From: Deltaproteobacteria bacterium
Lineage (GTDB): Bacteria > Myxococcota_A > UBA796 > JAFGLY01
Reading direction: 5' to 3'
Length of the DNA stretch: 29,815 nucleotides
Assembly (NCBI GenBank): GCA_016927815.1
Contig: JAFGLY010000169.1
Location: forward strand, 1 to 29,815
Of this stretch, positions 1 to 23,317 are shown piece by piece (the first letter of the stretch is position 1; the number at the start of each line of letters is the position of its first letter). The notes under the pieces were generated by a model that saw only the letters and a list, made by a program, of their open reading frames with translations, was not told the origin of the DNA and did no database searches. The translations under genes were made by a program, and so were the position numbers.

Positions 1-9
1 AGGCGAGCC

Positions 10-1023
10 TCAGGCGAGGAGCGGGTGCCGCCAGTTGCGTACCTTCATCGTCCAGGAAGGCGGCGTGGGGGTCTGGATTTCGGGCGGTCGCTCGCCCGCC
101 AGCGCCAGGGCGGACACCCGCACGTCCTCGCCGAGGCGCATCGTGTTGTAGCCGCCCTCGAGCACCGCCATGGTGGGCACCCGCTCGACGAAGGCATGGA
201 GCATCCAGGCCATGGCCAGGTTGGAGCAGGCCATGCCGCCGATGAGATCCCCTTCCATCACGTCGAAGCCGACCGAAGCGACACACACGTCCGGCCGGAA
301 CCGGTCCACGGCCGGAAGGATCAGGCGCTCCAGGGCGGTGAGGTAGTAGCCGTCGTCCGCACCGACCGGGAGCGGGACGTTCAGCGTGAAGCCGTAGCCC
401 GGGCCCTCGCCCACCTCGGAGGCCGCACCGGTGCCCGGGTAGAAGGGCCACCGGTGGAGGGAGACGTACAGGACGTCGGGCGACGCCCAGAACGCTTCCT
501 GCGTGCCGTTGCCGTGGTGCACGTCCGGATCGAAGACCACGACCTTCCGCCCCTCGGCCACGAGTGCCGCTGTGGCGATCGCGGCGTTGTTGAAGATGCA
601 GAAGCCCATGGCCTGGTCGCGCGTCGCGTGGTGCCCGGGGGGCCGGCACAGCACCAGGCCGTTGGTCCCGGCCATGGCGGTGGCCGCGGCGTCCACCGAC
701 GCCCCCGCAGCCACCAGCGCGGCGTCCACGGATCCCGGTGAGGCCGAGGTGTCCGCGTCGAACCAGACGTGTCGTCCCCGAGCGGCGAGAACCCGGTCCA
801 CGTAGGACGGCAGGTGAATCCGCTCCAGCTCCTCGCGCGTGGCGGGGCGCCCGGGTCGCGTGGGCCACCCGTGCGGCGCAAGCGCCCGCCGAATGGCCAC
901 GAGCCGCGCCGGGGACTCCGGGTGCCCGTAGCCGGGGTCGTGCGCGTCGAACCGGGGATCGTCGTAGAGGATCAGCGAACCTGGCGCCTCGCGCGCCGGG
1001 AACCGGGTTGGATCGTCCGGCAT
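10..1023 (-). CDS. Histone deacetylase / acetoin-utilisation AcuC family (arginase-deacetylase superfamily) protein
   Basis: Real coding part of the 682-aa minus-strand ORF begins at the ATG at 1021-1023 (MPDDPTRF...). Motifs read: LVLCRPPGHHA, FCIFNNAAIA, DPDVHHGNGTQ, LYVSLHRWPFYPGTG and GGY near the C-terminus, which are the canonical HDAC/AcuC catalytic signatures. The part of the ORF upstream of the ATG (to 2058) is Arg/Pro/Gly-rich GC junk. Confidence 0.8.
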   Translation of the reverse strand: MPDDPTRFPAREAPGSLILYDDPRFDAHDPGYGHPESPARLVAIRRALAPHGWPTRPGRPATREELERIHLPSYVDRVLAARGRHVWFDADTSASPGSVDAALVAAGASVDAAATAMAGTNGLVLCRPPGHHATRDQAMGFCIFNNAAIATAALVAEGRKVVVFDPDVHHGNGTQEAFWASPDVLYVSLHRWPFYPGTGAASEVGEGPGYGFTLNVPLPVGADDGYYLTALERLILPAVDRFRPDVCVASVGFDVMEGDLIGGMACSNLAMAWMLHAFVERVPTMAVLEGGYNTMRLGEDVRVSALALAGERPPEIQTPTPPSWTMKVRNWRHPLLA

Positions 1024-1043
1024 GTCGCCTCCGGCAGAGGCAT

Positions 1044-2798
1044 TCAATGTAGCGTCCCCGAGCAGGAGAGCGTCCCTCCGGGCGGCGGCACGACAGGTCG
1101 GGCGCGCGGATCGGGGGGCAGGGGGACGATCTCCAGCTCGCCCACCAGCACCTCGGGAACTGAGAGCCAGGTGGGCAGGCCCTCCACCGGGGAGAAGGAG
1201 GCGTGACCCGGGCGGAAGGAAGCCAGGAAGGTGCCTTCGACCTGGGGCCCCGCAGCCACGAGGTCCCTCAGGGCAAACCGGTCGAGCCGGGCGAAGCCCC
1301 CGCCGCGCAGCGTCTCCTCCCGGCCGTCGCGGTACAGGCGCACGATCTCCACGGGCAGAGGCGGGCGCTCGCCGTCGTCCGCGGGCAGGAGCCCCGGATC
1401 CCCGACCCGCCGGACGGTGTCGTCCTGCAGGCGGCGGACCACCAGCACGCTGTCGAGCCCGTAGGAGCGTGCGAGCGCCAGGGCCGTGCGGCGCAGGCGG
1501 GCATGGGTGTGGCGCCGGGCGGGCACCACCTCGAGAAGCGAGGCGCGGCCGGCCGGCCGGGCTCCGGGCGCCCCGCGTGCGTGGCCGTTGGAGGCCTGGA
1601 TCTCCTTGCGCGGCACGCGGCTCATGAGCAGGGTGCGGACGATGCCGTCGGACACGAGGTCCACGCGGCGGGCGGGCGTCCCCTCGAGATCGTAGCGGAA
1701 GGAGGCCGGGTGCGCCGGATCCCGCACAGGATCGTCGAACGCGGACCAGCCCCCGGGCAGGACCCGGCGGCCCACCCGGGGCTCCCGGCCCCGGTCGGCC
1801 GCGAGCGACAGGAATCCCTCGCCCAGCGGTCCCAACTCGCTCTCGAAGGGCACGGGCGGAGGGGTCCCCTCCAGCTGGGGCAGGAGGAGGAGGCGGAACA
1901 GGTCCACCGCGGCTCCGTCCTGGAAGATCACCGGGCCCACGTACTCCTGCTCGAGGAGCGGGGCGGCGGCGGCTCGAGCGAGGTTCTCGGTCAGATCCCG
2001 GACGGCTTCCGAGAGGCGATCGGTCTCCGGGAGGTCGGCCAGTGTCCGGGCGATCCACGTGCGGTGGTCCGTGAGCGCCATGCCGTCGGGCGCCTGGGCG
2101 CGGGCCATGACCCGGACCACGGCCTCGGCGTGCGGCCGGGCGATCCGGGTTCCCTCGGAGTCGACCAGGAGCATCGTGCCGGCCTCACAGGCGACCACCG
2201 CGGTCCCACCCACCAGCGATCCGTCCGCGGGCAGCCGCGCCGAGAGGAAACGCGCCAGGTCCCGGACGTGGGTCCTGTCGAGGGCGGGCGGGGGGCTGCC
2301 GGCGGGCACCCGGTGCGGGGCCTCGAGCCGGTAGTCGCCCGGATGGTCCGGGGGCGGCTGGAAGGAGGCCCGCTTGCGGGCGTACTGCTCGACCGCCTCC
2401 TTGTAGGCCCAGTCGGTGAGGGCCCAGATCCCGAGCCGGAGCGCGTGGGGCGTGAGCCGGGCCGGAAGCGGGCGAGCGCCGAAGCCCGTCTCCCAGCCCC
2501 CGAAGTTCGTGTTGTCGAAGGTGGGATCCCCCACCCGCACCTCGATGCCCACCAGGTTCCGGGGTCCGGCCTCCTCCTCCACGAGGGCGCCGAACGAGGC
2601 CGTGGCCAGAACCTGGTCGAGGAGCATCCCGTGGTAGCGCAGGTGGTAGAAGGGCGGGGCGCCGGGCAGCTCGAGGGCCGCCCGCTGGCGGGCCACCTCG
2701 TTTGCGAGCACGTCGGCGAAGGCCTCCGGCGCCAGGGGCACGGGGTCGGCGACCGCCTGCGGGCCAAACGCCAGGGTTGCGTAGAGAAGCGCCCTCAC
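1044..2798 (-). CDS. tldE: TldE/PmbA-family peptidase-like protein (no HExxxH motif), predicted exported
   Basis: Proposed GTG start at 2796-2798 overlaps the TGA of the upstream tldD-like gene (GTGA). N-terminus VRALLYATLAFGPQAVA-DP reads as a signal peptide. C-terminal half has the TldD/PmbA (peptidase U62) architecture (…SFRYDLEGTPARRVDLVSDGIVR…NGHARG…) but no HExxxH, which fits the TldE partner. The far-upstream part of the 1107-aa ORF is spurious because it overlaps tldD in another frame. Confidence 0.65.
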   Translation of the reverse strand: MRALLYATLAFGPQAVADPVPLAPEAFADVLANEVARQRAALELPGAPPFYHLRYHGMLLDQVLATASFGALVEEEAGPRNLVGIEVRVGDPTFDNTNFGGWETGFGARPLPARLTPHALRLGIWALTDWAYKEAVEQYARKRASFQPPPDHPGDYRLEAPHRVPAGSPPPALDRTHVRDLARFLSARLPADGSLVGGTAVVACEAGTMLLVDSEGTRIARPHAEAVVRVMARAQAPDGMALTDHRTWIARTLADLPETDRLSEAVRDLTENLARAAAAPLLEQEYVGPVIFQDGAAVDLFRLLLLPQLEGTPPPVPFESELGPLGEGFLSLAADRGREPRVGRRVLPGGWSAFDDPVRDPAHPASFRYDLEGTPARRVDLVSDGIVRTLLMSRVPRKEIQASNGHARGAPGARPAGRASLLEVVPARRHTHARLRRTALALARSYGLDSVLVVRRLQDDTVRRVGDPGLLPADDGERPPLPVEIVRLYRDGREETLRGGGFARLDRFALRDLVAAGPQVEGTFLASFRPGHASFSPVEGLPTWLSVPEVLVGELEIVPLPPDPRARPVVPPPGGTLSCSGTLH

Positions 2799-4456
2799 GG
2801 GTCGCCTCCGCCGGCCTGGGGCCGGGGCAGGAGCGGTGGACGATCCTCGCCCTTCTCCTTGCGCTGGAACTCGAGGGTCCGGAACAGCAGGCTCGGAGCG
2901 ACCGCGCTCACGGGCACCCAGCCGCTCTCGGCTCCGCACAGGCCGTTGAACACGCCCGGATCGTCGCCCGCAGCCAGGATGGAGGAGAAGGCCAGGAGCG
3001 GCGTGCCCACGAGGTCGATGCCGCGCACCCGCTCGTCCGGGCGTCCATCCACGTACACCCGGCGCGATCGGGTGGCGCGGACGTTGAAGGCGTTGGGCGT
3101 GACCCGACCGGTGGTCGTGAAACCGCCCTCGATCTCCTCCACCACGATGCCGTAGGGAAGTCCCTGGCGTCGGGCCTCCTGCTTGAGCCGATCGATCAGA
3201 CGGGCGGCCGACACGGCCCCGCGCGCCTCCACCACGGTGTTGCCCATGCGGGCCACCGGCGCGTGGCCCGCCATGCGTCGGCCATGGCCGTTGGACGTGG
3301 GAAACCCGGGGATGGGGGAGCGGTTCGTGAGGAAACCCCGGAAGATCCCCTTCTCCACGAGCACGGCCCGGGTGGCGGGCACGCCCTCGTCGTCCCACGG
3401 GTAGGCGCCGTTCAGGTCCTCGCCGGCGTACCGGGTGGTCGACGGGTCGTCCCACACGTCCAGGAACGCGGGCAGGATGGGACGCCCCACCTTCTCGGCG
3501 AAGGTCTTGCCCTCGTCGTCGCGCTTCTGGCGGTGGCCCTCGACCCGGTGGCCCAGCACCTCGTGGAAGAAGACCGCAGCCGCCCGGGCGTCGAGGATCA
3601 CCGGCCCGCGGTAGGGCTCGCCGCGCGGCGCGTCCAGGAGGGCGCCCAGCTCGTCCACGAGTCGGCCCGCGAGATCGATCAGGCGCGCCTCGGACGGGAG
3701 CCCCTCCAGGCTGCGGAACGAGAGCGTGCGCTCGGCCGAGAGGTCGTCGCCGTCGGGGGCCACCGTGCCGGCCAGGAGGCTCAGCCGGACCCAGGTGCCG
3801 CCGTGCACCAGGCGGCTGCCCTCGGTGTCCACGAAGGTCTTCTGCACCTGCTCCACCTGGAGGCTCGCCCGGGCCACGTGGACCCGCGGGTCGGCGTCCA
3901 TGCGGGCGGAGACACGCGCCAGGCGGCCCTCCCAGGGGACGGATTCGAGGGCAACCCACCGGATGGGCTGGCGGTCCTCCACCTTTGCACGTGGCTCGAA
4001 ATCCGGGGCCTGGGTCTCCTCCTCGACCTTGACCGACAGGTTGGCGCGGACGATGCCGATCCGGTTCCTGGCCTCGCGGTAGCGGGCGTCCAGCTCCGCC
4101 CACACGGCCTGGCGGAGGGCATGGGTCGGCTCGTCCTCGAAGGGGATCCTCAGGCGGTCGCGGGTGGAGTCGGTCCAGGCGCTCATGCCTCGGAGGGGAT
4201 GGGTGGAGTCGAGGTCGGGCGTGCCGACCCTCAGGTCCACGTCGAGGGTCCGGCTGCGCCCCACCTCGCTCGACGCCAGCGTGCCGGCCAGGGCGACCAC
4301 GTCGAGCGTGCGGTGATCCTCGACCTGGAGCGCGGCGTAGTGGACGGGCTGTGGACCGGCCGCCCACGCGGACCGGGCCCGGTCCAACTCGGAGACGAGC
4401 ACGTCCTCGACCGACGCGGCGAGCCCTGTCGACAGCAGGAGGAACGCGAGGAGCAC
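2795..4456 (-). CDS. tldD: TldD-family zinc metallopeptidase, predicted exported
   Basis: HEVLGHRVEGH (HExxxGH) metal-binding motif plus TldD/PmbA C-terminal domain (GFPTSNGHGRR, GNTVVE). Proposed GTG start at 4454-4456 is preceded by GGAGG 4-5 nt upstream (cctcc at 4461-4465 on + strand). N-terminus (M)LLAFLLLSTGLAAS looks like a signal peptide. Exact start uncertain; upstream in-frame ATGs would overlap the radical SAM gene. Confidence 0.75.
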   Translation of the reverse strand: MLLAFLLLSTGLAASVEDVLVSELDRARSAWAAGPQPVHYAALQVEDHRTLDVVALAGTLASSEVGRSRTLDVDLRVGTPDLDSTHPLRGMSAWTDSTRDRLRIPFEDEPTHALRQAVWAELDARYREARNRIGIVRANLSVKVEEETQAPDFEPRAKVEDRQPIRWVALESVPWEGRLARVSARMDADPRVHVARASLQVEQVQKTFVDTEGSRLVHGGTWVRLSLLAGTVAPDGDDLSAERTLSFRSLEGLPSEARLIDLAGRLVDELGALLDAPRGEPYRGPVILDARAAAVFFHEVLGHRVEGHRQKRDDEGKTFAEKVGRPILPAFLDVWDDPSTTRYAGEDLNGAYPWDDEGVPATRAVLVEKGIFRGFLTNRSPIPGFPTSNGHGRRMAGHAPVARMGNTVVEARGAVSAARLIDRLKQEARRQGLPYGIVVEEIEGGFTTTGRVTPNAFNVRATRSRRVYVDGRPDERVRGIDLVGTPLLAFSSILAAGDDPGVFNGLCGAESGWVPVSAVAPSLLFRTLEFQRKEKGEDRPPLLPRPQAGGGDP

Positions 4457-4479
4457 CTGGCCTCCGACCGGCGGGGAAC

Positions 4480-4593
4480 GGTGCCGGCGTGGGTCGGGCG
4501 ATCCTATCGCGGGCGGCCGCCGCCGCCCGGGAGGAACCGGTGCTGGCGTGGGTCGGGCTATCCTATCGGGGGCGGCCGCTGCCGCCCGGGAGG
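4480..4593. repeat. Imperfect tandem direct repeat, 2 copies of about 55 nt with 59-nt period (4480-4534 and 4539-4593), in the tldD/radical-SAM divergent intergenic region
   Basis: Copy 1 ggtgccggcgtgggtcgggcgatcctatcgcgggcggccgccgccgcccgggagg versus copy 2 ggtgctggcgtgggtcgggctatcctatcgggggcggccgctgccgcccgggagg (4 mismatches). Period 59 is not a multiple of 3. Each copy ends in a GGGAGG SD-like element; the copy-2 element sits 5 nt before the radical SAM ATG. A partial third end-of-unit (ggcggggaacg) precedes copy 1. Confidence 0.75.
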
Positions 4594-4598
4594 TGCTC

Positions 4599-5639
4599 AT
4601 GCCGATCCACGCCCCAGCCCGCTGGTGGCACCGCATCGAGGAGGGTCCGGAGGCCGGGCGCATCGCGTGCGACCTCTGTCCGCGTGCGTGCGTGCTCGGC
4701 CCGGGTCAGCGCGGCTGGTGCCGCGTCCGCGAGGCGCTCCCGGACGGGTCGGCCCTGGTGACCTGCTCCGGCCTCACCTCCGGGTTCTCCGTGGACCCCA
4801 TCGAGAAGAAGCCGCTCCACCACTTCCTGCCGGGAAGCACGGTGCTCTCCTTCGGGACCACGGGGTGCAACCTGGGCTGTCGCTTCTGCCAGAACCACCA
4901 CATGTCGCGGGCTCGGGAGCTGCCCACGGTGCCGGGTCCACCTGAGGCCGTGGCCGAGGCTGCCGTCCGCGCGGGGTGCGCCAGCGTGGCCTTCACCTAC
5001 AACGAGCCCACGATCTTCGCCGAGTACGCCATGGACGTAGCCGATGCCTGCCACGCCCGGGGCGTGCGCACGGTGGCCGTCACCAACGGCTACATCGCTC
5101 GCGATGCGCGGCGCGACTTCACCTCGGTGCTCGACGCGGTCAACATCGATCTCAAGGCCTTCTCGGACGCCTTCTACCGCCGCTGGTGCGGCGGCACGCT
5201 GGCACCGGTGATGGAGACCATCGAGTACGCGGTCCGGGAGTCGAGATGCTGGGTGGAGCTGACCACCCTCCTCATCCCCGGCCTGAACGACACGGACAGC
5301 GAGATCGAGGCGCTGTGCGCCTGGGTGGCGGGTTCACTCGGCCCGGACGTACCCCTGCACTTCTCGGCCTTCCACCCGTCGTACCGCATGCTGGACCGGC
5401 CGCGCACCCCTCCGTCCACCCTCCACCGGGCTGCCCACATCGCCCGTCGGCATGGGATCCGATACGTCTACACCGGCAACATCGCCGATCCCGAAGGCCA
5501 GGCCACGCGGTGTCCCGGCACCCAGGGACGGCCGTGTGGTGCCCTGCTCGTGGAGCGCCACGGGTTCGGGGCCCGGGTCGTGGGCCTCGACGGCGACCGC
5601 TGCCGCGTTTGCGGCGCACGGATCGCCGGGGTGTTCTGA
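4599..5639 (+). CDS. AmmeMemoRadiSam-system-type radical SAM enzyme (PFL-activase-like)
   Basis: ATG at 4599 with GGGAGG 5 nt upstream. CxxxCxxC radical SAM cluster in the context FGTTGCNLGCRFCQNHHMS, preceded by an N-terminal Cys pair (ACDLCPRAC…GWCRVRE) and DPIEKKPLHHFLPGS. This block is characteristic of the AMMECR1/Memo-associated radical SAM family (TIGR04337-like). The alternative upstream GTG at 4548 would add a repeat-encoded extension and is disfavoured. Confidence 0.8.
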   Translation: MPIHAPARWWHRIEEGPEAGRIACDLCPRACVLGPGQRGWCRVREALPDGSALVTCSGLTSGFSVDPIEKKPLHHFLPGSTVLSFGTTGCNLGCRFCQNHHMSRARELPTVPGPPEAVAEAAVRAGCASVAFTYNEPTIFAEYAMDVADACHARGVRTVAVTNGYIARDARRDFTSVLDAVNIDLKAFSDAFYRRWCGGTLAPVMETIEYAVRESRCWVELTTLLIPGLNDTDSEIEALCAWVAGSLGPDVPLHFSAFHPSYRMLDRPRTPPSTLHRAAHIARRHGIRYVYTGNIADPEGQATRCPGTQGRPCGALLVERHGFGARVVGLDGDRCRVCGARIAGVF

Positions 5640-5673
5640 GGATCCCGACGGGTGGCCTCCGGGGTCCGGCCCG

Positions 5674-7026
5674 TCAGGGCACGACGGGTGGAGGGCCGGC
5701 CGGGGGCGGAGGCGGGCCGCCGCCCAGGAGCGCGGCAATCTCCGGGACCTCGGCGGCGGCGATCCATCCGGCCATGCCGGCGCGCCAGACGAGGTGGCGG
5801 CCGTCCGGATCGGACGTGACCCGCCGGGCGACCTCCTCGGGGGGAATCTCCTCGCTGCCGCCCGCGCTTCCGCTGTAGTGGAAGCGGGTTGCGGCGGGTG
5901 GAGGCGGCGGGGCCGGCGGCAGGGCAGCCACCACCTCGGGCACCTCCCGCCAGGCCTTCCAGCCCGGCCAGCCGGGGGCCCAGACGTGGTGGGTACCCTC
6001 ACGGTCCTGAGCCACGAAGGCGGCGATCTCCGGGAGCGTGTACTCCCCCTGGCCCGCGGGACCGTGGTAGTGCAGGCGCAAAGCGCCAGCCGGCGGCGGC
6101 GGCGGTGTCGCGGCCGCGAGACCGGTGTGGGGGTCGAAGGTGCCCGGGGCCTGGGCTGCCTGGCCCATGCCGGCACCGATCTGCTGGCCCATGGCGAAGC
6201 CCACGCCCATGCCGACGCCAGCGCCGCCGATGCCCGGGTTGCGGGCCGCGTCGCCGATGGCGTCGGCCTGCTGGAGCTTCGTGTAGGCGTCGAGGTTGCC
6301 GAGCATGGCCATGCCCTGGCGCTTCTCGTAGTACTTCTGGACCTCGGGAGGCAGCGTGACGCCGTCCACCGTGAAGTCCGTGACGGTGATCCCGTAGTCC
6401 TCCTCGAACTTCGGGGAGAGCTTCTCCTTGAGCGCCTCGGCCAGCTCCAGGCCCGCGCCGACCAGCATGTCGAACGGGATCTTGGCCTCCTTGAGCAGGG
6501 CGGCGAACACCGCGAGGACCTTGCGCTTGAGCTGGCCGTTGATCTCGTCGGTGGTGAACAGACCGTCGGTGCCGACCACCTCGCGCAGGAACTTGGGCGG
6601 ATCGGAAATCCGGTAGCAGAACGTTCCGAATGCACGGATCTGGATGGAGCCGAAGTCCGGGTCCCGGACCGGCAGGGGCTGGGGGGTGCCCCACTTCTGG
6701 TCCGTGAACTTCCGGGTGTTCACGAAGTAGACGTCGCCCTTGTAGGGGTAATTGAGCTGGTACTTGATGGTCTCGAAGAAGGAGAGCAGCGGCTTGTTCT
6801 GCGTGGAGAGCGTGTAGGTGCCGGGGGCGAAGCACTCGGAGAAGCGTCCCTCGGACACGAACACCGCAGACTGCCCCTCGCGGACCACGAGCTTGCCGCC
6901 GTCCTGGATGGCCTGGTTGAAGATCGGGAAGCGGTAGACCAGGGTGTCGCGCGAGTCGTCCATCCACTCGATGATGTCGAGGAACTGGGCGGTGGCGTGG
7001 GTCTTGATGGTGTTCCAGAGGCTCAT
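5674..7026 (-). CDS. SPFH/Band-7 (COG4260, 'virion core protein'-like) domain protein with two C-terminal DUF4339/GYF-like domains
   Basis: ATG at 7024-7026 (MSLWNTIKTHATAQFLDIIEWMDDSRDTLVYRFP…) preceded by GGGAGA. The N-terminal 330 aa match the COG4260 SPFH family (IQDGGKLVVREGQSAVFV…TQNKPLLSFFETIKY…KWGTPQPLPVRDPDFG). A Gly/Met/Ala-rich linker and polyproline tracts follow. Two roughly 50-aa repeats with the DUF4339 pattern end the protein (HYHGPAGQGEYTLPEIAAF…HHVWAPGWPGWKAW and HYSGSAGGSEEIPPEEVARR…LVWRAGMAGWIAA). Confidence 0.8.
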   Translation of the reverse strand: MSLWNTIKTHATAQFLDIIEWMDDSRDTLVYRFPIFNQAIQDGGKLVVREGQSAVFVSEGRFSECFAPGTYTLSTQNKPLLSFFETIKYQLNYPYKGDVYFVNTRKFTDQKWGTPQPLPVRDPDFGSIQIRAFGTFCYRISDPPKFLREVVGTDGLFTTDEINGQLKRKVLAVFAALLKEAKIPFDMLVGAGLELAEALKEKLSPKFEEDYGITVTDFTVDGVTLPPEVQKYYEKRQGMAMLGNLDAYTKLQQADAIGDAARNPGIGGAGVGMGVGFAMGQQIGAGMGQAAQAPGTFDPHTGLAAATPPPPPAGALRLHYHGPAGQGEYTLPEIAAFVAQDREGTHHVWAPGWPGWKAWREVPEVVAALPPAPPPPPAATRFHYSGSAGGSEEIPPEEVARRVTSDPDGRHLVWRAGMAGWIAAAEVPEIAALLGGGPPPPPAGPPPVVP

Positions 7027-7132
7027 CGTGGGTCTCCCGAAACGGATTCCGGTGGCGGGACGGGGAGCAACGTAGCCACACGCGCTCGGGCCGCAACGAC
7101 TCTCTACGCCGGTGGGGGCGGTCTTCATGCAG

Positions 7133-7155
7133 GCGCGGGGCTGGAGCCTCCGCGC
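7133..7155 (-). terminator. GC-rich hairpin immediately 3' of the rocD-hypothetical operon (candidate intrinsic terminator, no U-tract)
   Basis: gcgcgg-g-ggct-gg-agcc-t-ccgcgc: 6-bp outer stem plus 4-bp inner stem, ending 5 nt from the stop codon at 7160-7162. No T-tract follows, so it may be only a stabilising stem-loop. Confidence 0.2.
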
Positions 7156-7159
7156 AGGA

Positions 7160-7921
7160 TCACTCGAACCGGAGCGAGGCGCCGCTGGCGAGCACGGCCA
7201 CGGGCACACCGCGGGCCGTGAGGCGATCGGCGATCGGAGTGAGCAGCACCGTGGGCATGCCGAGCGACCGCCGGACGTCGCCGAAGAGGTCCGCCAGCAC
7301 CAACAGCCGGCCTTCGAACCAGGGAGCCGATTCCTCCACGGTGGCCTCGTGCCCGTAGTCGCAGCCCACGATCACCAGGTCCGCTCCGGACCAGCGCCGG
7401 GCGTACTCCTCCAGGAAGCTGCCCTCCTGGCTGGCGTGGAGCGCACCGTTCAGGTGGACGAGCGTGGTGCCGTCCGGTAGCGACAGGCGCGTGATCGCCG
7501 GCTTCGAGGGGGGAAGCCGGGCGCGGTCGAGGAGGCGGCGGGCGGCTCGGAAGGGGTCCTTGAGGGCGCTGCGGGCCTTTTGCATCCCCTCGTGCCGCGT
7601 GACGTAGGACACCGGCTCGTAGGGCGCCATCTCGATCCGGATTCCCCGCACCTCGCACGGAGCGCCGATCCCCTGGATCTCCCCTTCGCGGGCGAGCCCC
7701 TGGAGAAGGGTGGGCAGGCCCACCACGCGTGGGGAGGCGCCCGAGAGGATCGCGGTGCGCACGCCCTTGATCCGTTCGGCCTCGTTCCAGGTCAGGATCA
7801 CCACGTCCGGCACCACGGGCGGCTGGAGGGGGTCGAACCGGACGCGCAGCCCGGAGGCGAGGTCCAGCCGGATCGAGGAGGCTCCCTCGTGGGTCAGGCG
7901 CTGGCGCCAGTGGACGTTCAT
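7160..7921 (-). CDS. Hypothetical protein, possibly MBL-fold-like with degenerate metal motif
   Basis: ATG at 7919-7921 overlaps the rocD stop (ATGA), so it is translationally coupled to rocD. 253 aa ([21 protein letters not shown]…). Alternating beta-strand-like hydrophobic blocks ([43 protein letters not shown]) resemble a Lactamase_B_3-type fold, but the canonical HxHxDH motif is absent. Function not supportable from sequence alone. Confidence 0.5.
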
Positions 7922-12990: not shown

Positions 12991-15900
12991 TTACGGGGTC
13001 CACGTGAGGGACAGCCCCACCGATCTCCCGTCGCGGGTCTCCTCGGTGACGTTGCCGGCCACGGTCTGGCGGGAGGGCCAGTCGAGCAGGTTGGAGACCT
13101 TGAGCCGGACCTGCCAGTGGGGGCCAAAGCCCTGGGTCGCGACCATGTCCACCCGGTGCACGGGCTCCTCGTAGGCGTCGGGGATCCCCGACTTGCCGAC
13201 CTCGACGATCCGCGGTCCGAAGGCGTTGTAGAGGAGTGAGACAGAGGTCCTGACGTCGGGGTTCTCGTAGCTCAACTGGGCGTTGACCACCCAGGGGGAC
13301 TGACCCTGCAGGGGGCGTTCCTCCGACGTCTGGTTGCCCTCCGTGTCGGAGAGGTCGACCTTCGACGAGATGAGCGAGACGTTGGAGCTGGCGTACACGT
13401 CCTCGAGCAGCGGGAGGAGGGCGTCCAGGCGCTGCCGGAACTCCAGCTCCGCACCCAGGTTGGTCGCGCTCGTCGCGTTGTCGAACGTGCCCAGGCTGCC
13501 GGACACCGCGCTCACGGCGACCACCGACTCGATCGGGTGGTCGAAGTACTTGAAGAAGGCCCCGACCGAGAGGCTCTCCCCCGCACGGGGGTACCATTCC
13601 CAGCGCAGGTCGAGGTTGTCGATGGTGGCTCGCTCGAGGTCCGGGTTTCCATAGAGGGAGCGACCGGTGCGGTAGTCGTAGTAGGCCACCTCGGTCAACT
13701 CACGGAACTCGGGTCGGGACAGGGTGCGCCCGTAGCCGGCCCTGAGGAGCATCCCGTCCGGATCCGCGGCGTTGCCCAGGCCGATGGTCACGGTGGCGGC
13801 TGGCAGTACGTCCCGAGACTCGAGGGTTGCCTCCACAGGTTCCTTGCTCGTGTCGAACAGTTCGAACGTCGTCACGCCCTGTACGGAATGCTCGTACCGC
13901 AGGCCGGCCAGCGTGCGGAGGCGCGAAGTCCAGGCCGCGTCGATCATGCCGTACGCTCCCCGGAGCGACTGGCTTGCCGTGTAGTCGTCCGAGTTGGCGG
14001 TGTTCTCTTCAATCTGCAGGTAGCCCGGATCCCCCTCCTCCTCGGCCCCGATGTTGGAGGGCACGATGACCTGGTCGATGGGAGCCGTGAGGTCGATGCC
14101 CTCGGTGCCCTTGAAGCCGTAGGAGAAGCGCCGGACGGTGGAGGCCCGATCGCGGCTCGCCCTGGCGCCTCCGACCTTGATGACGGTGTCGTGGCCGACT
14201 CGCGGGAGGTGCCAGGCGAGGTCCAGCCTCAGGTCACGGGTGGTGTCGTCGAGGGTCTGGTACTGGATGTCGTTCCACCCCCCACGCTGGGAGAGCACCA
14301 GGCCTTCCTCGGTGTCCAGGTAGGTCCACTCCCGTCGGTCGGGCTCGAGCCGCGTCGCGAACGCCAGGGCGTAGCGGGCGGCGGCCTCGACACGACCGAG
14401 GTCCACGTCCAGGGCGAGCTGCTCGAAGGCGAGTTGCTGCTCCACCCAGTCGATCCGCTCGTTGTAGGTGTCGCTGCTGCCCTCCGGGTCGTCCCAGGTC
14501 CAGCGGAGCGCGGTCCCCTGGGAGGCCCGATTGATGAGCGTCGTCGAGGAGAAGCGGACCACGTCCCTCCAGTCCAGGCCGAGGGAGAGGGCCCCGCCCA
14601 CGCGGACCCGGTTCGAGGTGTCCACGAACGCCGTGCGGCGGGCGACCTGGAGTCGGTCCAGGCCCGCTGCGTACACGGTCCGGACCCCCTCCTCGACGTT
14701 CCATGCGTTCGAGTAGACCAGAGCGCCCAGAGCCCCCAGTTCGGCCTCCCCGACCTTCCACCTCCGGCCGGCGCTCGCGGTCAGGCCGAGGTCGGGAGGC
14801 AGCGTACGCGCCTCGTGGGTCCAGCGATTGGGGATCATCTCCCCGTAGCGCTCGAGTTCCTCGGGCGAGTACCCGAGGTCCGAGAAGATCCCCTTGGACT
14901 TCAACGGCTGCTCGGCGCTGGCCTCGGCGACCTCTGCTGGGAGGGCCCGCCAGCCGGCCCCTACCCCCAGCCAGTCGGTGGGACCGGACGGCGCGACCCG
15001 TGCGTCGGAAAGGGTGGCCCCCCCCACCCACGTCCCCGACACACCGAGGCTCAGGACCGGCGTCTCCGGGATGCTCCGCGTGCGGATCTCCACCACCCCG
15101 CCTCCGAACTCACCCGGCCGGTCCGGAGAGAACGTCTTCTGGACGACGATGGCCTCGATGAGGGCGGTTGGGAAGAGGTCGAGGGGCACGACCCTCTTCT
15201 CCGGTTCCGGGCTCGGCAAGGCCGAGTCGTTGAGCAGGGTGGAGGAGTAGCGATCGCCCAGCCCGCGTACATAGACGTACCTGCCGCCGATCACGGTCAG
15301 GCCCGTGACCCGCTTCAGCGCAGCGGCGGCGTCGCTGTCGCCGGCCCGGGTCATCTGCTCGGCCCCCAGCACGTCGGATACCGCAGCCGCCTCTTTGCGC
15401 TCATCGAGGAGCGAGGCGGTACCGCCCGTGATCCGAGGCGCCGTGATCGTCAGGTCCGAGAGGACCAGCCCGATCTTCTCCAGGGAGAAGGAGAGGGAGC
15501 GCGCCTCGCCGGGAACCACCCGGACGGTCTGGGTGTGGGCCTCGTAGCCGGCGCGGATGGCGGTGACCTCCCATGTCCCTGCGGGCAGGGTGAGCGAACC
15601 GGTGCCGTCCGCAGCGGTCGTGGCGGCCGCCCCCGCGCCCCTGACGAACAGCCGTACGTCGGCGAGAGGGACTCCGGCGGACCGATCGGTGACCGTTCCG
15701 ACCACCGTTCCGGGCGGACCGGCCGGCACCACCGCCACGGCCTCCTCCACAGACGGCGCTTCCAGATGGACCTGAGGCTCCCCTGCACCCACCGTGACCA
15801 GCATCTCGGTGGTCCGGCCAGCGGCCACGGGCACCTCGGACACGGCTGCGACCGGAAGGCCTGGAGCTTCGACGTGCACCTCGACCCGGCCGGGCAGGAG

Positions 15901-16065
15901 GTCGATGCGGAAGACCCCCCACTCGTCGGTCCGGACCTCGGTCTCGCCCGCCCACACCCGGGCGTCCGGCACCGGCGTTCCGTCGACGTCGAAGACCACC
16001 CCCGAGAGGGATCCGGTCTGGGCCAGGGCGGCGCCCGCCAGGAGCAGGAGGGCGATCAAGGACAC
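12991..16065 (-). CDS. TonB-dependent outer-membrane transporter with N-terminal carboxypeptidase-regulatory-like (CarboxypepD_reg) domains (Oar-like)
   Basis: Proposed GTG at 16063-16065 (GGGGGAG 7 nt upstream) gives signal peptide MSLIALLLLAGAALA-QTG. Two roughly 80-aa CarboxypepD_reg-like beta-sandwich modules follow (GSLSGVVFDVDGTPVPDARV…; GTVVGTVTDRSAGVPLADVRLFV…). The Plug domain (AVSDVLGAEQMTRAGDSDAAAALKRVTGLTVIGGRYVYVRGLGDRYSSTLLN) is followed by a long beta-barrel. The 5' extension to 17079 overlaps the TPR gene and is spurious. Confidence 0.8.
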   Translation of the reverse strand: MSLIALLLLAGAALAQTGSLSGVVFDVDGTPVPDARVWAGETEVRTDEWGVFRIDLLPGRVEVHVEAPGLPVAAVSEVPVAAGRTTEMLVTVGAGEPQVHLEAPSVEEAVAVVPAGPPGTVVGTVTDRSAGVPLADVRLFVRGAGAAATTAADGTGSLTLPAGTWEVTAIRAGYEAHTQTVRVVPGEARSLSFSLEKIGLVLSDLTITAPRITGGTASLLDERKEAAAVSDVLGAEQMTRAGDSDAAAALKRVTGLTVIGGRYVYVRGLGDRYSSTLLNDSALPSPEPEKRVVPLDLFPTALIEAIVVQKTFSPDRPGEFGGGVVEIRTRSIPETPVLSLGVSGTWVGGATLSDARVAPSGPTDWLGVGAGWRALPAEVAEASAEQPLKSKGIFSDLGYSPEELERYGEMIPNRWTHEARTLPPDLGLTASAGRRWKVGEAELGALGALVYSNAWNVEEGVRTVYAAGLDRLQVARRTAFVDTSNRVRVGGALSLGLDWRDVVRFSSTTLINRASQGTALRWTWDDPEGSSDTYNERIDWVEQQLAFEQLALDVDLGRVEAAARYALAFATRLEPDRREWTYLDTEEGLVLSQRGGWNDIQYQTLDDTTRDLRLDLAWHLPRVGHDTVIKVGGARASRDRASTVRRFSYGFKGTEGIDLTAPIDQVIVPSNIGAEEEGDPGYLQIEENTANSDDYTASQSLRGAYGMIDAAWTSRLRTLAGLRYEHSVQGVTTFELFDTSKEPVEATLESRDVLPAATVTIGLGNAADPDGMLLRAGYGRTLSRPEFRELTEVAYYDYRTGRSLYGNPDLERATIDNLDLRWEWYPRAGESLSVGAFFKYFDHPIESVVAVSAVSGSLGTFDNATSATNLGAELEFRQRLDALLPLLEDVYASSNVSLISSKVDLSDTEGNQTSEERPLQGQSPWVVNAQLSYENPDVRTSVSLLYNAFGPRIVEVGKSGIPDAYEEPVHRVDMVATQGFGPHWQVRLKVSNLLDWPSRQTVAGNVTEETRDGRSVGLSLTWTP

Positions 16066-17198
16066 GCTCCCCCGGACGTGCAGGTCTCCATGGCCACCCG
16101 CAACTGGGTGGCCCTGGCGTAGGCCTCGGGCTCGCTGATGGTCGCCAGCCAGCGCTCGGACCGGTCGAACGCGCCCAGGTGGAACCAGGCGAAGGCCAGA
16201 CCGTAGGCGATGCCGTCGTCGTCGCCCAGATCCAGGCGGAGCAGTCGCTCTTCGAGCGCGACGGCTCGCTCCCACTCCTCGCCCTCCAGGAGCAGGCCCA
16301 GGCGCTGCCGGGCCTTGGCCACGGGATCGACCACCTGACCGTTCATCCGCTGGGCGGCATCCAGGTCGCCCGCTCGGCGGTAGGCCTCGGCGGCCTCGAG
16401 TGCGAGCGCGGGGTCGAGCGTGGCCGCGCGCTCGAGGAATCGTCCCGCGTTGCGCGGCTGCCCGTCGTCGATCGCTGCGCGGGCCGACTGCACCAGCAGG
16501 TCGCGGTCGTTTCCCTGGCGGAGCAGGGCGGCCTCGAGGATGACCATCGCTTCCCCGGTGTCCCCGCCACGTCGAAGCGCCTCGGAGATGGCGATGGCGT
16601 CCTTCGCATCGGAGTCCTGACGGGCCAGGAGCGCTTCGCCATGCTCGCGCGCCTCCCGGAGGAGGCCGAGACGGACGAGCAGGAAGACCTGCTGGCGTCT
16701 CAGGTCCGGCTGGTCGGGAAGCCGGTTCGCCCCTTGCTCCAAGGCGTTCCAGGCCTCGGCCGGCCGGCCGATCTCCTCGTACGCCTGGGCTCGCAGCAGC
16801 CACGTACCGGGCAGGCTCTCCCCCATCTGGCCGGTGCGGTCGAGGGCCTCGAGCGCCCGCACGGGGTCCCTTGCCGCGAGGAGTGCCCGCGCGAGGTGCA
16901 ACTCGAGCAACTCCCGCCCCTCGGTCGCCGTCTCGAGGGCACGCTGGAACGAGACCGATGCCGCGATCGCCTTCTTCTCGTGCAGCTCGACGAGACCGCG
17001 GAGCATCCAGAGCCTCTCGGGATCGGCTCTCTCGGCATCCAGGGGGATTTCCGCCAGTATCTCGGAAGCCCGAGCCCACTGGCCCTCGCGGACGAGCAGG
17101 CCCGCGAGCGCGACCGGGTCCTCTTCGGGCACGGCCTCACGGGGCCTGGCCTCCGCCACGCCGATGAGGATCAGCCACAAGGCCAGCCAATGGCGCAT
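16056..17198 (-). CDS. TPR-repeat protein with signal peptide (TtpD-like component of the TonB2-type system)
   Basis: ATG at 17196-17198, MRHWLALWLILIGVAEA signal, then TPR-like helical repeats (Ala/Leu/Arg/Glu-rich, W/Y..A..G motifs). The stop overlaps the TBDT start by 10 nt; the start lies 3 nt downstream of the tonB stop. Confidence 0.75.
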   Translation of the reverse strand: MRHWLALWLILIGVAEARPREAVPEEDPVALAGLLVREGQWARASEILAEIPLDAERADPERLWMLRGLVELHEKKAIAASVSFQRALETATEGRELLELHLARALLAARDPVRALEALDRTGQMGESLPGTWLLRAQAYEEIGRPAEAWNALEQGANRLPDQPDLRRQQVFLLVRLGLLREAREHGEALLARQDSDAKDAIAISEALRRGGDTGEAMVILEAALLRQGNDRDLLVQSARAAIDDGQPRNAGRFLERAATLDPALALEAAEAYRRAGDLDAAQRMNGQVVDPVAKARQRLGLLLEGEEWERAVALEERLLRLDLGDDDGIAYGLAFAWFHLGAFDRSERWLATISEPEAYARATQLRVAMETCTSGGACP

Positions 17199-17200
17199 CG

Positions 17201-17830
17201 TCACTCCAGCGCGAAGCGCAGCGTCTGCCGGACGCGGACGGCCACGGGGGCGCCCTCCTGGCGCCCGGGTTCGAACGTCCACTCCTCGACCGCCATGACC
17301 GCCGCTTCGTCGAAGGTGCCCGGGGGCTCGGCCTCCACCACGTGGATGTCCTGTGCCGATCCGTCCACGTCGACCACGAAGCTCAGGGTGACGAAGCCCG
17401 AGAGCCCGAGAGCCCGAGCCCTCGCGGGGAAGGACGGCGGCTCCTGCCGGGTCGGGCGGGGAGGCACCTCCACCGCATCCTCGTCGATCACGGACGCTCC
17501 GAGATCCTGGACGAGCGCCTCCGTCACCCCGCTGAGCGCCAGGTCGGCGGCGTCGCCGAAGCCGAAGTCCAGGCCCTCCAGGCCCGCCGCGAGCAGAGGC
17601 GCCGCAGAGGGCCCCTTGCGTGCGGCCTGGCGGGCGGCCCCGGTCCGCCGCGGGCGGGACGCCCTCTGGGCGGCAGGTCGAGCGGGCACGGCGATCTCCT
17701 GGACCACGCTCACGGGCTCCAGTGCACGCTTCTCCACCTGGGCGTTCATTCCGAGGCTCAGCGCACACACGCCCGCCGTCCCCAGAACCGCGATGCCCAT
17801 GGCAGCGAGATGGCGCAGCAGGTCAGCCAT
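17201..17830 (-). CDS. tonB: TonB-family energy transducer
   Basis: ATG at 17828-17830 overlaps the exbD end (8 nt). N-terminal TM anchor (LAAMGIAVLGTAGVCALSL), a Pro/Ala/Arg-rich spacer, and a C-terminal TonB_C fold (ARARALGLSGFVTLSFVVDVDGSAQDIHVVEAEPPGTFDEAAVMAVEEWTFEP). Confidence 0.75.
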   Translation of the reverse strand: MADLLRHLAAMGIAVLGTAGVCALSLGMNAQVEKRALEPVSVVQEIAVPARPAAQRASRPRRTGAARQAARKGPSAAPLLAAGLEGLDFGFGDAADLALSGVTEALVQDLGASVIDEDAVEVPPRPTRQEPPSFPARARALGLSGFVTLSFVVDVDGSAQDIHVVEAEPPGTFDEAAVMAVEEWTFEPGRQEGAPVAVRVRQTLRFALE

Positions 17831-18230
17831 CCTCGGCGTCCGTGACCACACCGATTTCCTTCGCGCCTCCCAGCCGGCACTGATCGACGACCTCGACGAG
17901 CTTTTCGGCCGTGACCCGCCGGTCGCTGACCACGAGCACCGTCTTGTCGCCGCTCCGGGAGAGCGCATCGCGGACCCGGCTCTGGACCATCCAGGGCCGG
18001 ACGGGCGTCTCGTCGATGTAGACCGCGGCGGACCGGTCGATGAACACCCGGAGCGCCCGGGTGTTTGCCGGCGAGGCGCTCTGGGCGCCCGGGCGCTCGA
18101 TCTGCAGTTCGGCATCCTTGGCAAAGGTCGTGGTGACCATGAAGAAGATGAGCAGCACGAGGATGCAGTCGATGAGGGGCACCACGTCGATGTGTGGGTC
18201 GCTGTGGGGGGCGTGCTGTCGCCGGCTCAT
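17823..18230 (-). CDS. exbD: ExbD/TolR biopolymer transport protein
   Basis: 135 aa, MSRRQHA…IDVVPLIDCILVLLIFFMVTTTF (single TM). Periplasmic domain carries the ExbD signature (LRVFIDRSAAVYIDETPV). ATGA overlap with the upstream exbB stop. Coordinates are taken from ORF-frame arithmetic. Confidence 0.8.
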   Translation of the reverse strand: MSRRQHAPHSDPHIDVVPLIDCILVLLIFFMVTTTFAKDAELQIERPGAQSASPANTRALRVFIDRSAAVYIDETPVRPWMVQSRVRDALSRSGDKTVLVVSDRRVTAEKLVEVVDQCRLGGAKEIGVVTDAEDG

Positions 18231-18835
18231 GCGGGCACCCGCTTCAGGCTGCCCGAGTAGATGGCCTTCAACTCCTCGAGCTCCAGGCTGAGCTTCTGCT
18301 CGAAATGGTGGAGGACGCCGCCCATCAGCAGACCCGGCACGGCGATCGCGAGGCCCATCTGGGTTGCGTACAGGGCCTCGACGATGCCTCCGGCGATGCC
18401 CTCCGAGGCGGTGGAGGTCATGGACTGTCCCAACGAGCCGAAGGTCTCGATGAGCCCGGTCACCGTGCCGAGCAGGCCGAGCAAAGGCGACATGGCCACC
18501 AGGCATTTCACGAGCATCGTCCCGCGCTGGAGGCTCTCCTCGAGGTCGGCGAAGGCCTCGTCCAGGAAGGGACGGGGAACCGGGCCGCCGAATCGCCGCC
18601 AGAGGGCTGCGCCCCGGCTTGCCGCCTCTCCGATGACGCCCTGGGCACGCCCCTCCGGCCTGACCCGCCATGCAGCCACCAGGGTCCTCAGGTCGCGCCG
18701 ATCCCCCCGCCGGAGCACGAGCAAGCGCTCCCCGAGGGCGAACCAGAGCACGAAGGCGGTGGTGAAGAGGGCGGGCATGACGACGCCTCCCCCCTGCCAG
18801 AGGTCGTAGACCTGGAGCAGGAGGGAATCACTCAT
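18227..18835 (-). CDS. exbB: MotA/TolQ/ExbB proton-channel protein
   Basis: 202 aa, three TM segments with the MotA_ExbB motif (MSPLLGLLGTVTGLIETFGSL…GIAGGIVEALYATQMGLAIAVPG). The start ATGAGTGA overlaps the stop of the upstream long ExbB-like gene. Confidence 0.8.
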   Translation of the reverse strand: MSDSLLLQVYDLWQGGGVVMPALFTTAFVLWFALGERLLVLRRGDRRDLRTLVAAWRVRPEGRAQGVIGEAASRGAALWRRFGGPVPRPFLDEAFADLEESLQRGTMLVKCLVAMSPLLGLLGTVTGLIETFGSLGQSMTSTASEGIAGGIVEALYATQMGLAIAVPGLLMGGVLHHFEQKLSLELEELKAIYSGSLKRVPA

Positions 18836-20174
18836 TCGCCACCAGGAGCCGTTCGACGGGGTCCTCGTACGCGCATTCCTGTTCGGACCGCTGGAGGTCG
18901 AATGCGTTGACCAGGGCCAACGCCCCGCGTTCGACGGTGTTCTTCACGGAACTGCCGACGCTGGCCAGGAGGTTCCCGACGAGCAGGGTGGGGATGGCCA
19001 CCGCAAGACCCATGGCCGTGCAGACCAACGCCTCTGCGATGCCGGCCGACATCAGCTTCGGATTTCCGGTTCCGTGCTCGGTGATGACGTTGAAGGTCGC
19101 GATCATGCCGGTGACGGTACCGAGCAGCCCCAGCAGGGGAGCGCCGGCCGTGATGACCACCAGGGCCGAGGCGAAGCGGTCGATAAGCGGCGTCTCGCGG
19201 AGGATGGCCTCGTCCACCACGCGATCCAGCTCCTCTCGGGAACGGTGTGCGTTCTCGAAGACCGCCTTCAGCACCCGAGGGATCGATCCGCCCCGCTTCC
19301 GGAGAAGGCTCAGGGCCTCCTCGAGCCGGTCGGCCCGAACCCGTTCGGTGACGGCGTTCACGAGCGGCATGCCGCCGCGCCTCGCGAGCGCGAGCGTGCC
19401 GGCCCGCGAGAGCGCGAGAAGGGCGCTCAAGCAGCCGAGCCCGAACAGCACGTACCCCATGGCGCCCGCATCCTCGAGCACCGAGCCGAGCCCCGTCTCC
19501 TTCTCCTTTTCGATGGTCAGGCGGTCCGGCTCGAAGAGGTGGACCTCCAGATCCGCGGGTCGCTCCCCGGCGGCGAGCGCCGCGGCCGTCGCCTGGCCGA
19601 ACCTCCTTCGGAGCTGGAGCTTTCCCTCGGCCACCGGGGCCAGCGCACCCGATCCCTCATCGGATACGCCCCAGGCGGCGACCCGGCCCCAACGGAAGAT
19701 CCGTCCCTGGACCTGCTGGCCCTCGGGAAGGAAGAAGGCCCCCTCCTCCGAGCGGATCGCGCCCGTCTCGGCCAGGCGCTCGGCCGAGGCGCGGAAGATG
19801 AGCGGGATGGCCGTGGTGGGGTCGTCGAGCGGGTCGAGGTCGAGCGTGTCTTCCGCCTGCTGGAGGGTGGACGAGAGCACGGAGTTGGCGTCGTCCATCT
19901 CCCCGAGTTCGCGATCCACGATGTCGCGCTCGTCCTCGGCGAGGTCGGCCTCGTGGGCCGTGGAGACGAGCTTCGCCTGGACGGTTTCCAGACGAGCGTT
20001 CGCCTGGGCCACGCGCTGGGCGGCCTCCCCGCTCATCTCCTGGAGCCGCTCCTCGAGCTCCCGCTTCTCCGCGCTCAGGTAGGCGAACTCCTTCTGATAG
20101 GCGGCGTCCAGGCTGGACGCCATGGCCCCTGGGTCGGTGGCCAGGGCTGCGCCGAGGAGACAAAACAGGATCAT
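18828..20174 (-). CDS. Long MotA/TolQ/ExbB-family protein with about 230-aa N-terminal periplasmic coiled-coil extension (TtpC-like)
   Basis: ATG at 20172-20174, signal peptide MILFCLLGAALA. The N-terminal half is a Glu/Arg/Ala-rich coiled coil. The C-terminal half holds three TMs and the MotA_ExbB channel motif (APLLGLLGTVTGMIATFNVI…GIAEALVCTAMGLAVAIPT). This architecture equals TtpC of Vibrio TonB2 systems. Confidence 0.75.
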   Translation of the reverse strand: MILFCLLGAALATDPGAMASSLDAAYQKEFAYLSAEKRELEERLQEMSGEAAQRVAQANARLETVQAKLVSTAHEADLAEDERDIVDRELGEMDDANSVLSSTLQQAEDTLDLDPLDDPTTAIPLIFRASAERLAETGAIRSEEGAFFLPEGQQVQGRIFRWGRVAAWGVSDEGSGALAPVAEGKLQLRRRFGQATAAALAAGERPADLEVHLFEPDRLTIEKEKETGLGSVLEDAGAMGYVLFGLGCLSALLALSRAGTLALARRGGMPLVNAVTERVRADRLEEALSLLRKRGGSIPRVLKAVFENAHRSREELDRVVDEAILRETPLIDRFASALVVITAGAPLLGLLGTVTGMIATFNVITEHGTGNPKLMSAGIAEALVCTAMGLAVAIPTLLVGNLLASVGSSVKNTVERGALALVNAFDLQRSEQECAYEDPVERLLVANE

Positions 20175-20926
20175 GACCCAGCTCCCGGGTCGGGGAGCGT
20201 GAAGTCCCCGCTGCGCACGCCGTGCGCGACCTTGTTGAAGAAGCTCTCGACCGCCCTCTGGTCTTCACGCAAAGTCAGCGCCTTCCACGTCCAACCCTCG
20301 GCCGAGCGCACCGCCGTCCCGTACAGGCCGCCGTCCGTCCGGAAATACAGCGCCACCATGCCGAGTCGAGCCACGTCGGCCAGCACCTCCTGCCCGTCCA
20401 GCGGCACGATCTGTCGATCCAGGCCGTTCTCGCGGGTGAGGCGGAGCTCGTCCTCGGTGAACGCCCAGAGACGTGCCGTCGCGCCCTCCGGGGAGATCAG
20501 GCCCGAGGCGAGCTGGTCCTGGATCCTGTCCAGCTCCGCCTGCCGCTCGGCCAGGTGGAAGGGCAGGCTGAAGTCCACGGCGGTCCGGATCCGCCGGATG
20601 GACTCCAGGAGGGCCGGGGTGAGCGTCTCACCGCGCGTGCTCGAGCGGGCCAGCTCCGCCCGACTGGCGTCCACCTCGCCCCGGACCTGGGAGAGCCTGA
20701 GCTCCTCACGCCGGAGCTGGACCTCCACCTCCATCACCTGCGCCTCGACGGCCTTGATCCTGGCCCTCGTGTCCTCCTTGGAGGCTGCGATCTCGCTGGA
20801 CAGCGTCTCCACCTCGCGGCGGAGGCGCGCCAGCTCGGAAGCGCGGTGACCCGCGGCCTCCTCTGCGAACGCGCCGGCTGGCAGGCAAAGCAGGAGGACC
20901 AGGACGAATCCTCTCCGGGGGCTCAT
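20171..20926 (-). CDS. DUF3450-like periplasmic coiled-coil protein (TtpB-like, TonB-system associated)
   Basis: ATG at 20924-20926, signal peptide MSPRRGFVLVLLLCLPAGAFA. A coiled-coil N-terminal half is followed by a conserved C-terminal block (LPFHLAERQAELDRIQDQL…VALYFRTDGG.YG). The 4-nt overlap with the downstream TtpC-like start and the position match DUF3450/TtpB genes of TonB2-type clusters. Confidence 0.6.
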   Translation of the reverse strand: MSPRRGFVLVLLLCLPAGAFAEEAAGHRASELARLRREVETLSSEIAASKEDTRARIKAVEAQVMEVEVQLRREELRLSQVRGEVDASRAELARSSTRGETLTPALLESIRRIRTAVDFSLPFHLAERQAELDRIQDQLASGLISPEGATARLWAFTEDELRLTRENGLDRQIVPLDGQEVLADVARLGMVALYFRTDGGLYGTAVRSAEGWTWKALTLREDQRAVESFFNKVAHGVRSGDFTLPDPGAGS

Positions 20927-23177: not shown

Positions 23178-23317
23178 GCCCGCCCCCCAGGCCGCCTCGC
23201 GGCGGGGTCCGCAAGACCTCCGGGGCCGCAGGGGTACGTGATCCCCGCGATTGCACGGAAGGACCGTCCTGGGGTACGTACGGTGTCCCGGCCATACACT
23301 CTCGAAGGCACCGCGGC

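Follow-up and report, generated by a model that had tools for sequence, protein, structure and literature searches.

A predicted exported TldD/TldE-type peptidase pair and its deacetylase and radical SAM neighbours, probably brought together by descent, in one Myxococcota sub-lineage

The window analyzed here is an entire contig of a metagenome-assembled genome labelled “Deltaproteobacteria bacterium” (JAFGLY010000169.1, 29,815 bp, ~72% GC), and all searches of the window cover that contig only. Close to its start it carries a block of four genes, encoding a TldD-like protein, a TldE-like paralogue, a deacetylase of the HDAC family and, on the opposite strand, a radical S-adenosylmethionine (SAM) enzyme of the AmmeMemoRadiSam type. 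We consider it likely that this block consists of an exported heterodimeric peptidase of the TldD/E type, an unrelated deacetylase and a displaced radical SAM gene, which are neighbours by descent within one Myxococcota sub-lineage. Inherited regional synteny best explains the neighbourhood, and the locus as such is of little consequence; what deserves broader interest is the existence of TldD/TldE-like pairs that bear signal peptides.

The gene models (Table 1) were set from codon-position GC analysis and inspection of the start codons. The TldE start overlaps the TldD stop as GTGA (a 4-nt overlap), 20 nt separate the TldE-like gene from the HDAC gene, and 142 nt lie between tldD and the divergent radical SAM gene. 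An earlier note, made from the DNA letters and their open reading frames (ORFs), had described these same four genes, the GTGA coupling and the 20-nt gap, and all of these were found as it gave them. NCBI has a protein of 100% identity for each of the TldD-like, TldE-like and radical SAM products (the matching records are MBN1337049.1 and MBN1337050.1, with locus tags beginning JXB39_), the TldE-like one being JXB39_13905, annotated as a “hypothetical protein”.

The TldD-like protein belongs to the TldD/PmbA superfamily (PF19289, MEROPS M103), matching PF19289 with E=1e-29. Its metal motif is H298-E299-V-L-G302-H303 (HEVLGH), and H298, E299, G302, H303 and C507 are all invariant across 17 homologues. 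The earlier note had recognized this motif, which is indeed present, but had written it as HExxxGH; the correct form is HExxxH, as in E. coli TldD. The protein aligns to the C-domain of the E. coli enzyme (5nj5_A), with both the HExxxH and the cysteine (CGKEG) matched. At the level of the fold, the AlphaFold2 model (pLDDT 77.7, pTM 0.79) was matched by Foldseek to E. coli TldD over its full length (5nj5/5njf; E=1e-26, TMt 0.72, 19% identity, ~540 aligned columns), and all of its remaining PDB matches at E<=0.001, 16 in number, are structures of PmbA/TldE. The TldE-like protein also matches PF19289 (E=4e-10) and is 30% identical to the TldD-like one (E=1e-25); at the place of HEVLGH it has ESELGP, in agreement with the note, which had described this subunit as lacking the metal motif.

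The cut-offs of the canonical TldD equivalogs (NCBIfam NF008006 and NF040952) were missed by the TldD-like protein, with 57 against 513 and 66 against 635 bits, and scores so far under these cut-offs place it in a distinct subfamily of longer proteins with signal peptides. The family counts at least 6,800 proteins in the database at E<=1e-5, across at least six phyla, and the window pair is an ordinary member of this uncharacterized, cross-phylum subfamily of exported TldD/E proteins of ~550-590 aa. The comparison of neighbourhoods on the TldD side was made by tblastn of the window proteins against 84 TldD-centred loci of other genomes, drawn from three long Myxococcota contigs and 80 loci of GTDB species representatives (Myxococcota, Acidobacteriota, Kapaibacteria/Ignavibacteria, Bacteroidota, Planctomycetota, Verrucomicrobiota and others), in which the TldD-like protein is 39-57% identical to that of the window. 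In nearly all of the 84, a paralogue lies directly downstream of the TldD-like gene. This second paralogue is closer to the TldD-like than to the TldE-like protein of the window in several loci, which are not of Myxococcota (L022, L028, L031, L036, L038, L046, L048, L052, L054, L059, L083 and L084).

The closest known relative of the window pair is the TldD/TldE (PmbA) system of E. coli (MEROPS M103, PDB 5NJ5), with which the TldD-like protein shares the fold over its whole length. In both cases one subunit holds the HExxxH and the cysteine ligand and the other is a paralogue without the motif. The differences are also clear, since the identity is only ~19% and the window subunits are 70-130 aa longer. 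The E. coli proteins are cytoplasmic, whereas both window subunits carry N-terminal signal segments; additionally, the paralogue genes of the window are adjacent and translationally coupled, unlike those of E. coli, where tldD and tldE are unlinked. Based on the GTGA coupling and on the E. coli precedent, we infer that the two products may form a heterodimer, with one catalytic subunit (in which HExxxH and the cysteine would bind zinc) and one inactive paralogue. For E. coli TldD/E, a “pencil-sharpener” degradation of unfolded peptides has been described, and the TldD/E enzymes which mature peptides made on the ribosome and modified after translation (RiPPs) are usually encoded outside the respective clusters and behave as sequence-tolerant general peptidases (PMC10885120). 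By analogy, unfolded peptides would be threaded into the chamber of the window heterodimer and broken down there, in the periplasm or extracellularly, and its role would most likely be in general peptide turnover or nutrition. Our search of the literature found no experimental study of signal-peptide-bearing TldD/TldE-like pairs; if these pairs act like E. coli TldD/E, they would constitute a widespread and unexamined periplasmic or extracellular peptide-degrading machine.

The export of both subunits is well supported by the comparison of N-termini. In the window, the TldD-like protein begins with the signal-like segment MLLAFLLLSTGLAAS, which precedes VEDV, and the TldE-like protein with MRALLYATLAFGPQAVA, which precedes DPV; 16 close homologues have N-termini of a like kind. 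Among the top database matches, a hydrophobic 10-mer whose start lies within the first 25 residues is present in 96 of 119 TldD-like and 110 of 119 TldE-like proteins, against 3 of 120 radical SAM controls. In low-GC relatives (Bacteroidota, Kapaibacteria and others), whose start codons are unambiguous, both subunits show N-termini of the classical kind, with MKK, a hydrophobic stretch and AxA, or with a lipobox (e.g., MKKIILSIVIAFILALSLAYSQQ, MKKIKSIIYALLLFACANPSFAQ and MKKNFFQRTIFVSVFLQLLSCYSIVSAQ). It is this presence of hydrophobic N-termini on both subunits, and in homologues from at least six phyla, low-GC genomes included, that makes export well supported, and the signal peptides which the earlier note had assigned to both proteins are supported. 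Lipobox-like N-termini (LALGC, SFAC, LFAC) were also seen in homologues of either subunit (L036, L038, L069 and L072), which suggests lipoprotein anchoring of some homologues in some lineages.

The note had itself pointed to a possible weakness of its claim, namely that the signal peptides could be start-codon artefacts and the pair an ordinary cytoplasmic TldD/E. Gene starts are indeed ambiguous in a genome of ~72% GC, one homologue (P0065) is called without the segment, and most of the close homologues, which are mainly from Myxococcota, have no K/R ahead of the hydrophobic segment: such an n-region occurs in 12 of 119 (P0002-P0120) and 22 of 119 (P0242-P0360). The hydrophobic region of the window TldE-like protein is, furthermore, short (KD 1.72), and the case for export is built on sequence heuristics; these points count against our interpretation. 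Nevertheless, we regard the artefact as extremely unlikely, given the clear signal peptides and lipoboxes on both subunits in low-GC homologues, the contrast with the radical SAM controls and the distance from the canonical equivalogs. In the window itself, there is no in-frame tldD start between 4600 and 4456, and the stretch upstream is broken by a 59-nt duplication, not a multiple of three, which is missing in the closest relative (L085), so that a longer TldD N-terminus is not conserved.

The third gene of the block encodes a protein that matches PF00850 over its full length (E=1e-78), with no NCBIfam equivalog match. Its translation has the motifs PPGHH, DPDVHHGNG, GFD and EGGY intact, and therein the catalytic His-His, the Asp/His metal ligands and the EGGY tyrosine that are common to HDAC6 and to bacterial class II HDAC-like amidohydrolases and lysine deacylases. 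The closest solved structures are HDAC6 catalytic domains, HDAC15 and the bacterial HDAH/lysine deacylase, and the protein is accordingly classed, on these sequence relationships, as a class II (HDAC6-like) deacetylase and not as one of the class I AcuC type, the earlier note having labelled it HDAC/AcuC. It has no signal peptide (maximum N-terminal hydrophobicity 0.49) and would act as a separate cytoplasmic unit. With a gap of 20 nt and no terminator, the HDAC gene is probably co-transcribed with the pair in this genome; the terminator scan gave one site, inside tldD and not above shuffled sequences, and is uninformative for a Myxococcota genome of 72% GC. The deacetylase is, however, not a conserved partner of the pair: only one of the 84 TldD-centred loci (L011) has an HDAC homologue within 10 kb, with 35% identity and on the opposite strand.

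The radical SAM protein scores 462 bits against the AmmeMemoRadiSam model TIGR04337 (cut-off 220) and its translation has the cluster motif CNLGCRFC (CxxxCxxC). PF04055 is its sole Pfam domain and the next-best models are glycyl-radical activases; no SPASM or RRE domain was detected, and sactipeptide maturase models gave ~18 bits. Its identity to homologues of many phyla is 53-62%, those at 56-62% being annotated in Actinomycetota, Acidobacteria, Planctomycetota, Gammaproteobacteria and Myxococcales, which indicates a slowly evolving enzyme. For the radical SAM side we used 80 metagenome loci of the closest homologues, of which 58 were informative (at least 1.5 kb upstream). As a Memo-AMMECR1 query we took the fusion encoded directly upstream of one of these homologues, which was found through clustered six-frame ORFs (a clustering that is noisy owing to the high GC). 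The order Memo, AMMECR1, radical SAM, on one strand, occurs in 53 of the 58 informative loci, while two have AMMECR1 only and three have neither, which bears out the note's statement that enzymes of this type normally sit with Memo and AMMECR1.

In the window neither partner is present, as the note had also stated: on the 29.8-kb contig, no Memo or AMMECR1 was found by tblastn (E<1), by hidden Markov models (HMMs) built from 56 Memo and 62 AMMECR1 sequences, or by Pfam searches of the remaining genes. The window enzyme passes TIGR04337 and is 53-58% identical to enzymes of Memo-AMMECR1-radical SAM operons, but in place of the adjacent partners of that three-gene system it has tldD on its divergent side. 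The L085-L092 loci of the close relatives described below likewise gave no Memo or AMMECR1 (tblastn E<1, same HMMs), and the sub-lineage's radical SAM genes fall into a single clade of a neighbour-joining tree, which is consistent with vertical inheritance after one rearrangement. The radical SAM orthologue would, in this way, have split from a Memo-AMMECR1 operon within this Myxococcota sub-lineage, to stand now divergently beside tldD. The window locus is not the only one with a stand-alone copy, although such copies are in the minority. The closest full-length database homologue (P0122, 62%) stands alone in an unrelated context, and genes of the AmmeMemoRadiSam type without adjacent Memo/AMMECR1 were seen in unrelated contexts in L173 (10001-11104), L100, L107 and L166. 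Such enzymes provide a small clue to the role of the three-gene system, which is still uncharacterized.

The neighbourhood comparison bears on the relationship between the four genes. By tblastn, the radical SAM gene is in none of the 84 TldD-centred loci outside the sub-lineage; conversely, neither TldD nor the HDAC is in any of the 80 radical SAM homologue loci (58 informative). The arrangement of the window, with the radical SAM gene divergent from TldD, TldE and then (in some cases after an intervening gene) HDAC, is kept only in five close relatives, namely L085, L086, L087/88, L089 and L091/92 (TldD 79%, 64%, 62%, 61% and 59% identical to that of the window, respectively), the window being the sixth distinct locus. 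In these relatives, the similarity extends beyond the block: in L089, GlmU, a class III aminotransferase and a conserved 253-aa protein are ordered and oriented as in the window, and in L091 the SPFH/GYF gene is syntenic with that of the window. Insertions occur as well, with an abhydrolase between TldE and HDAC in L087, a DUF4126 gene on the opposite strand at the same place in L091, and GGDEF and HDOD genes upstream of the radical SAM gene in sub-lineage relatives. L090, with a TldD no more distant than theirs (62%), has neither the radical SAM nor the HDAC gene. Taken together, the wider synteny, the insertions and the lack of both genes in L090 point to the regional synteny of one sub-lineage and not to a travelling cluster. 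A pair of M16 peptidase genes was also considered as a conserved partner of exported TldD/E and discarded, as it is found in 7 of 80 loci plus L001-L003 and L090, all of one Myxococcota group. These M16 pairs bear signal peptides and lie a few kb from TldD/E (L001 18327-21139, L002 14446-17264, L003 15879-18682, L090 9583-12128), and in the same group a Sua5/YciO gene often follows the exported TldD/E; lineage synteny accounts for the M16 proximity, or it may mark a neighbourhood of periplasmic peptide degradation.

The intergenic region between tldD and the radical SAM gene had been presented in the earlier note as a shared, duplicated control region. The duplication is real: two tandem 59-nt copies fill the 142-nt gap, each bearing GGGAGG and a TATCCTATC/GATAGGATA motif, and the start of a partial third copy (4578-4593) carries the GGGAGG Shine-Dalgarno sequence of the radical SAM gene, making 2.3 copies in 4460-4593. 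Its reading as a control region is not supported, as this is a recent and private tandem duplication. L085 has a single copy in an intergenic region of 83 nt (142 minus 59), farther relatives have unrelated intergenic sequence, and no further copy of the unit occurs in the window; the ideas of a conserved operator and of a dispersed element were rejected on the grounds that the repeat is present only here and is single-copy in L085. An Rfam scan of positions 1-7500 at E<=1 returned only two sub-threshold chance matches, so that the intergenic region shows neither a riboswitch nor a leader, and a scan for sigma-70 consensus promoters found none, which carries no information in a Myxococcota genome of such high GC (72%).

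The earlier note had seen in the combination of protease pair, deacetylase and radical SAM enzyme a resemblance to a peptide- or metabolite-modification locus. Put as a mechanism, the four genes would be a functional module of the sub-lineage, in which a radical SAM enzyme recruited away from the Memo/AMMECR1 system and the deacetylase, both cytoplasmic, modify a peptide or metabolite that is then exported and trimmed by TldD/E, or imported after trimming. It is true that TldD/E enzymes mature RiPPs elsewhere and that, going by the title of a review cited in PMC10885120, the family also includes N-deacetylases; moreover, the arrangement persists in six distinct loci whose outer flanks differ and whose proteins are as little as 55-62% identical, all six without Memo/AMMECR1. 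We judge such a module unlikely. The association is absent from the 84 TldD and 80 radical SAM loci of other lineages, and the co-occurrence, for which the note had proposed phylogenetic profiling, does not recur across independent lineages; it is confined to a narrow sub-lineage where housekeeping genes keep their order as well, a sign of regional synteny. Insertions part TldE from HDAC, in one case on the opposite strand. The radical SAM protein belongs to the AmmeMemoRadiSam type, which is PFL-activase-like, and lacks SPASM and RRE domains. The gaps of the block (20, 142 and 34 nt, and the 4-nt overlap) contain no ORF of at least 20 aa and leave no room for a precursor peptide gene; the note, too, had found no such gene. 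Finally, the proposed partners would work in different compartments, the protease being predicted outside the cytoplasm and the deacetylase and radical SAM enzyme inside it. The more far-reaching proposal, of a new kind of trans-envelope peptide or metabolite modification system in which an uncoupled radical SAM enzyme and a class II deacetylase act on a product or substrate handled by the exported TldD/E, we hold to be very improbable.

A more restricted link would join only the pair and the deacetylase in a functional operon to which the radical SAM gene would not belong; the pair could, for instance, release acetylated peptides or amino compounds, to be imported and then deacetylated. The 20-nt gap on the same strand without a terminator is what one would expect of such an operon, as is the downstream and co-directional position of HDAC in all six sub-lineage loci, but no HDAC lies beside the pair in 83 of the 84 other loci, an opposite-strand gene (L091) or an abhydrolase (L087) can come between TldE and HDAC, and the proteins are again assigned to different compartments. 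This link, too, appears improbable.

Neighbourhood by descent, which we prefer, has its own difficulties, and several observations weigh against it. The constant place of HDAC just mentioned is one; another is that nothing is inserted between the radical SAM gene and tldD in any of the six sub-lineage loci. Changes did occur in the outer flanks, where GGDEF/HDOD genes were inserted and SPFH was moved; these features leave room for some selective linkage. In addition, the lineage whose radical SAM gene is shorn of local Memo/AMMECR1 is the very one where it abuts tldD. The six loci are phylogenetically non-independent, and neither a functional reading nor one by descent is statistically testable from them. 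We nevertheless infer that the genes are probably not functionally coupled.

Table 1. Features of the window, with coordinates in the 29,815-bp contig.
Feature	Coordinates	Strand	Remarks
HDAC-family deacetylase	1023..10	-	337 aa; ATG start preceded by GGAGG
TldE-like paralogue	2798..1044	-	584 aa; GTG start preceded by GGAGG
TldD-like catalytic subunit	4456..2795	-	553 aa; GTG start after GGAGG; NCBI start identical
Tandem 59-nt copies	4460-4518 and 4519-4577	.	85% identical; within the 142-nt divergent gap
AmmeMemoRadiSam-type radical SAM	4599..5639	+	346 aa; ATG start preceded by GGGAGG; divergent from tldD
SPFH/Band_7_1 protein with two C-terminal GYF_2 domains	5674-7026	-	73% identical to the syntenic L091 gene
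Conserved 253-aa protein	7160-7921	-	no Pfam match; beside a class III aminotransferase here and in L089 (47% identity)
TonB-dependent receptor with CarboxypepD_reg, then TPR-repeat-like, TonB-, ExbD- and two ExbB/MotA-like genes	12991-20264	-	receptor by Pfam; the rest from translations
446-aa protein	20930-22270	-	lipoprotein-like N-terminus (LVPLVACNGG); no Pfam match
MJ0042-type zinc-ribbon protein with C-terminal TPR repeats	23291-24733	+	
Small TFIIB-type zinc-ribbon protein	25220-25519	+	

Other genes noticed in the window are also listed in Table 1. Judging from their predicted products, the genes that begin with the TonB-dependent receptor make up a complete outer-membrane uptake module. 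The occurrence of an MJ0042-type zinc-ribbon/TPR gene together with one for a TFIIB-type zinc ribbon is gene content typical of Myxococcota.

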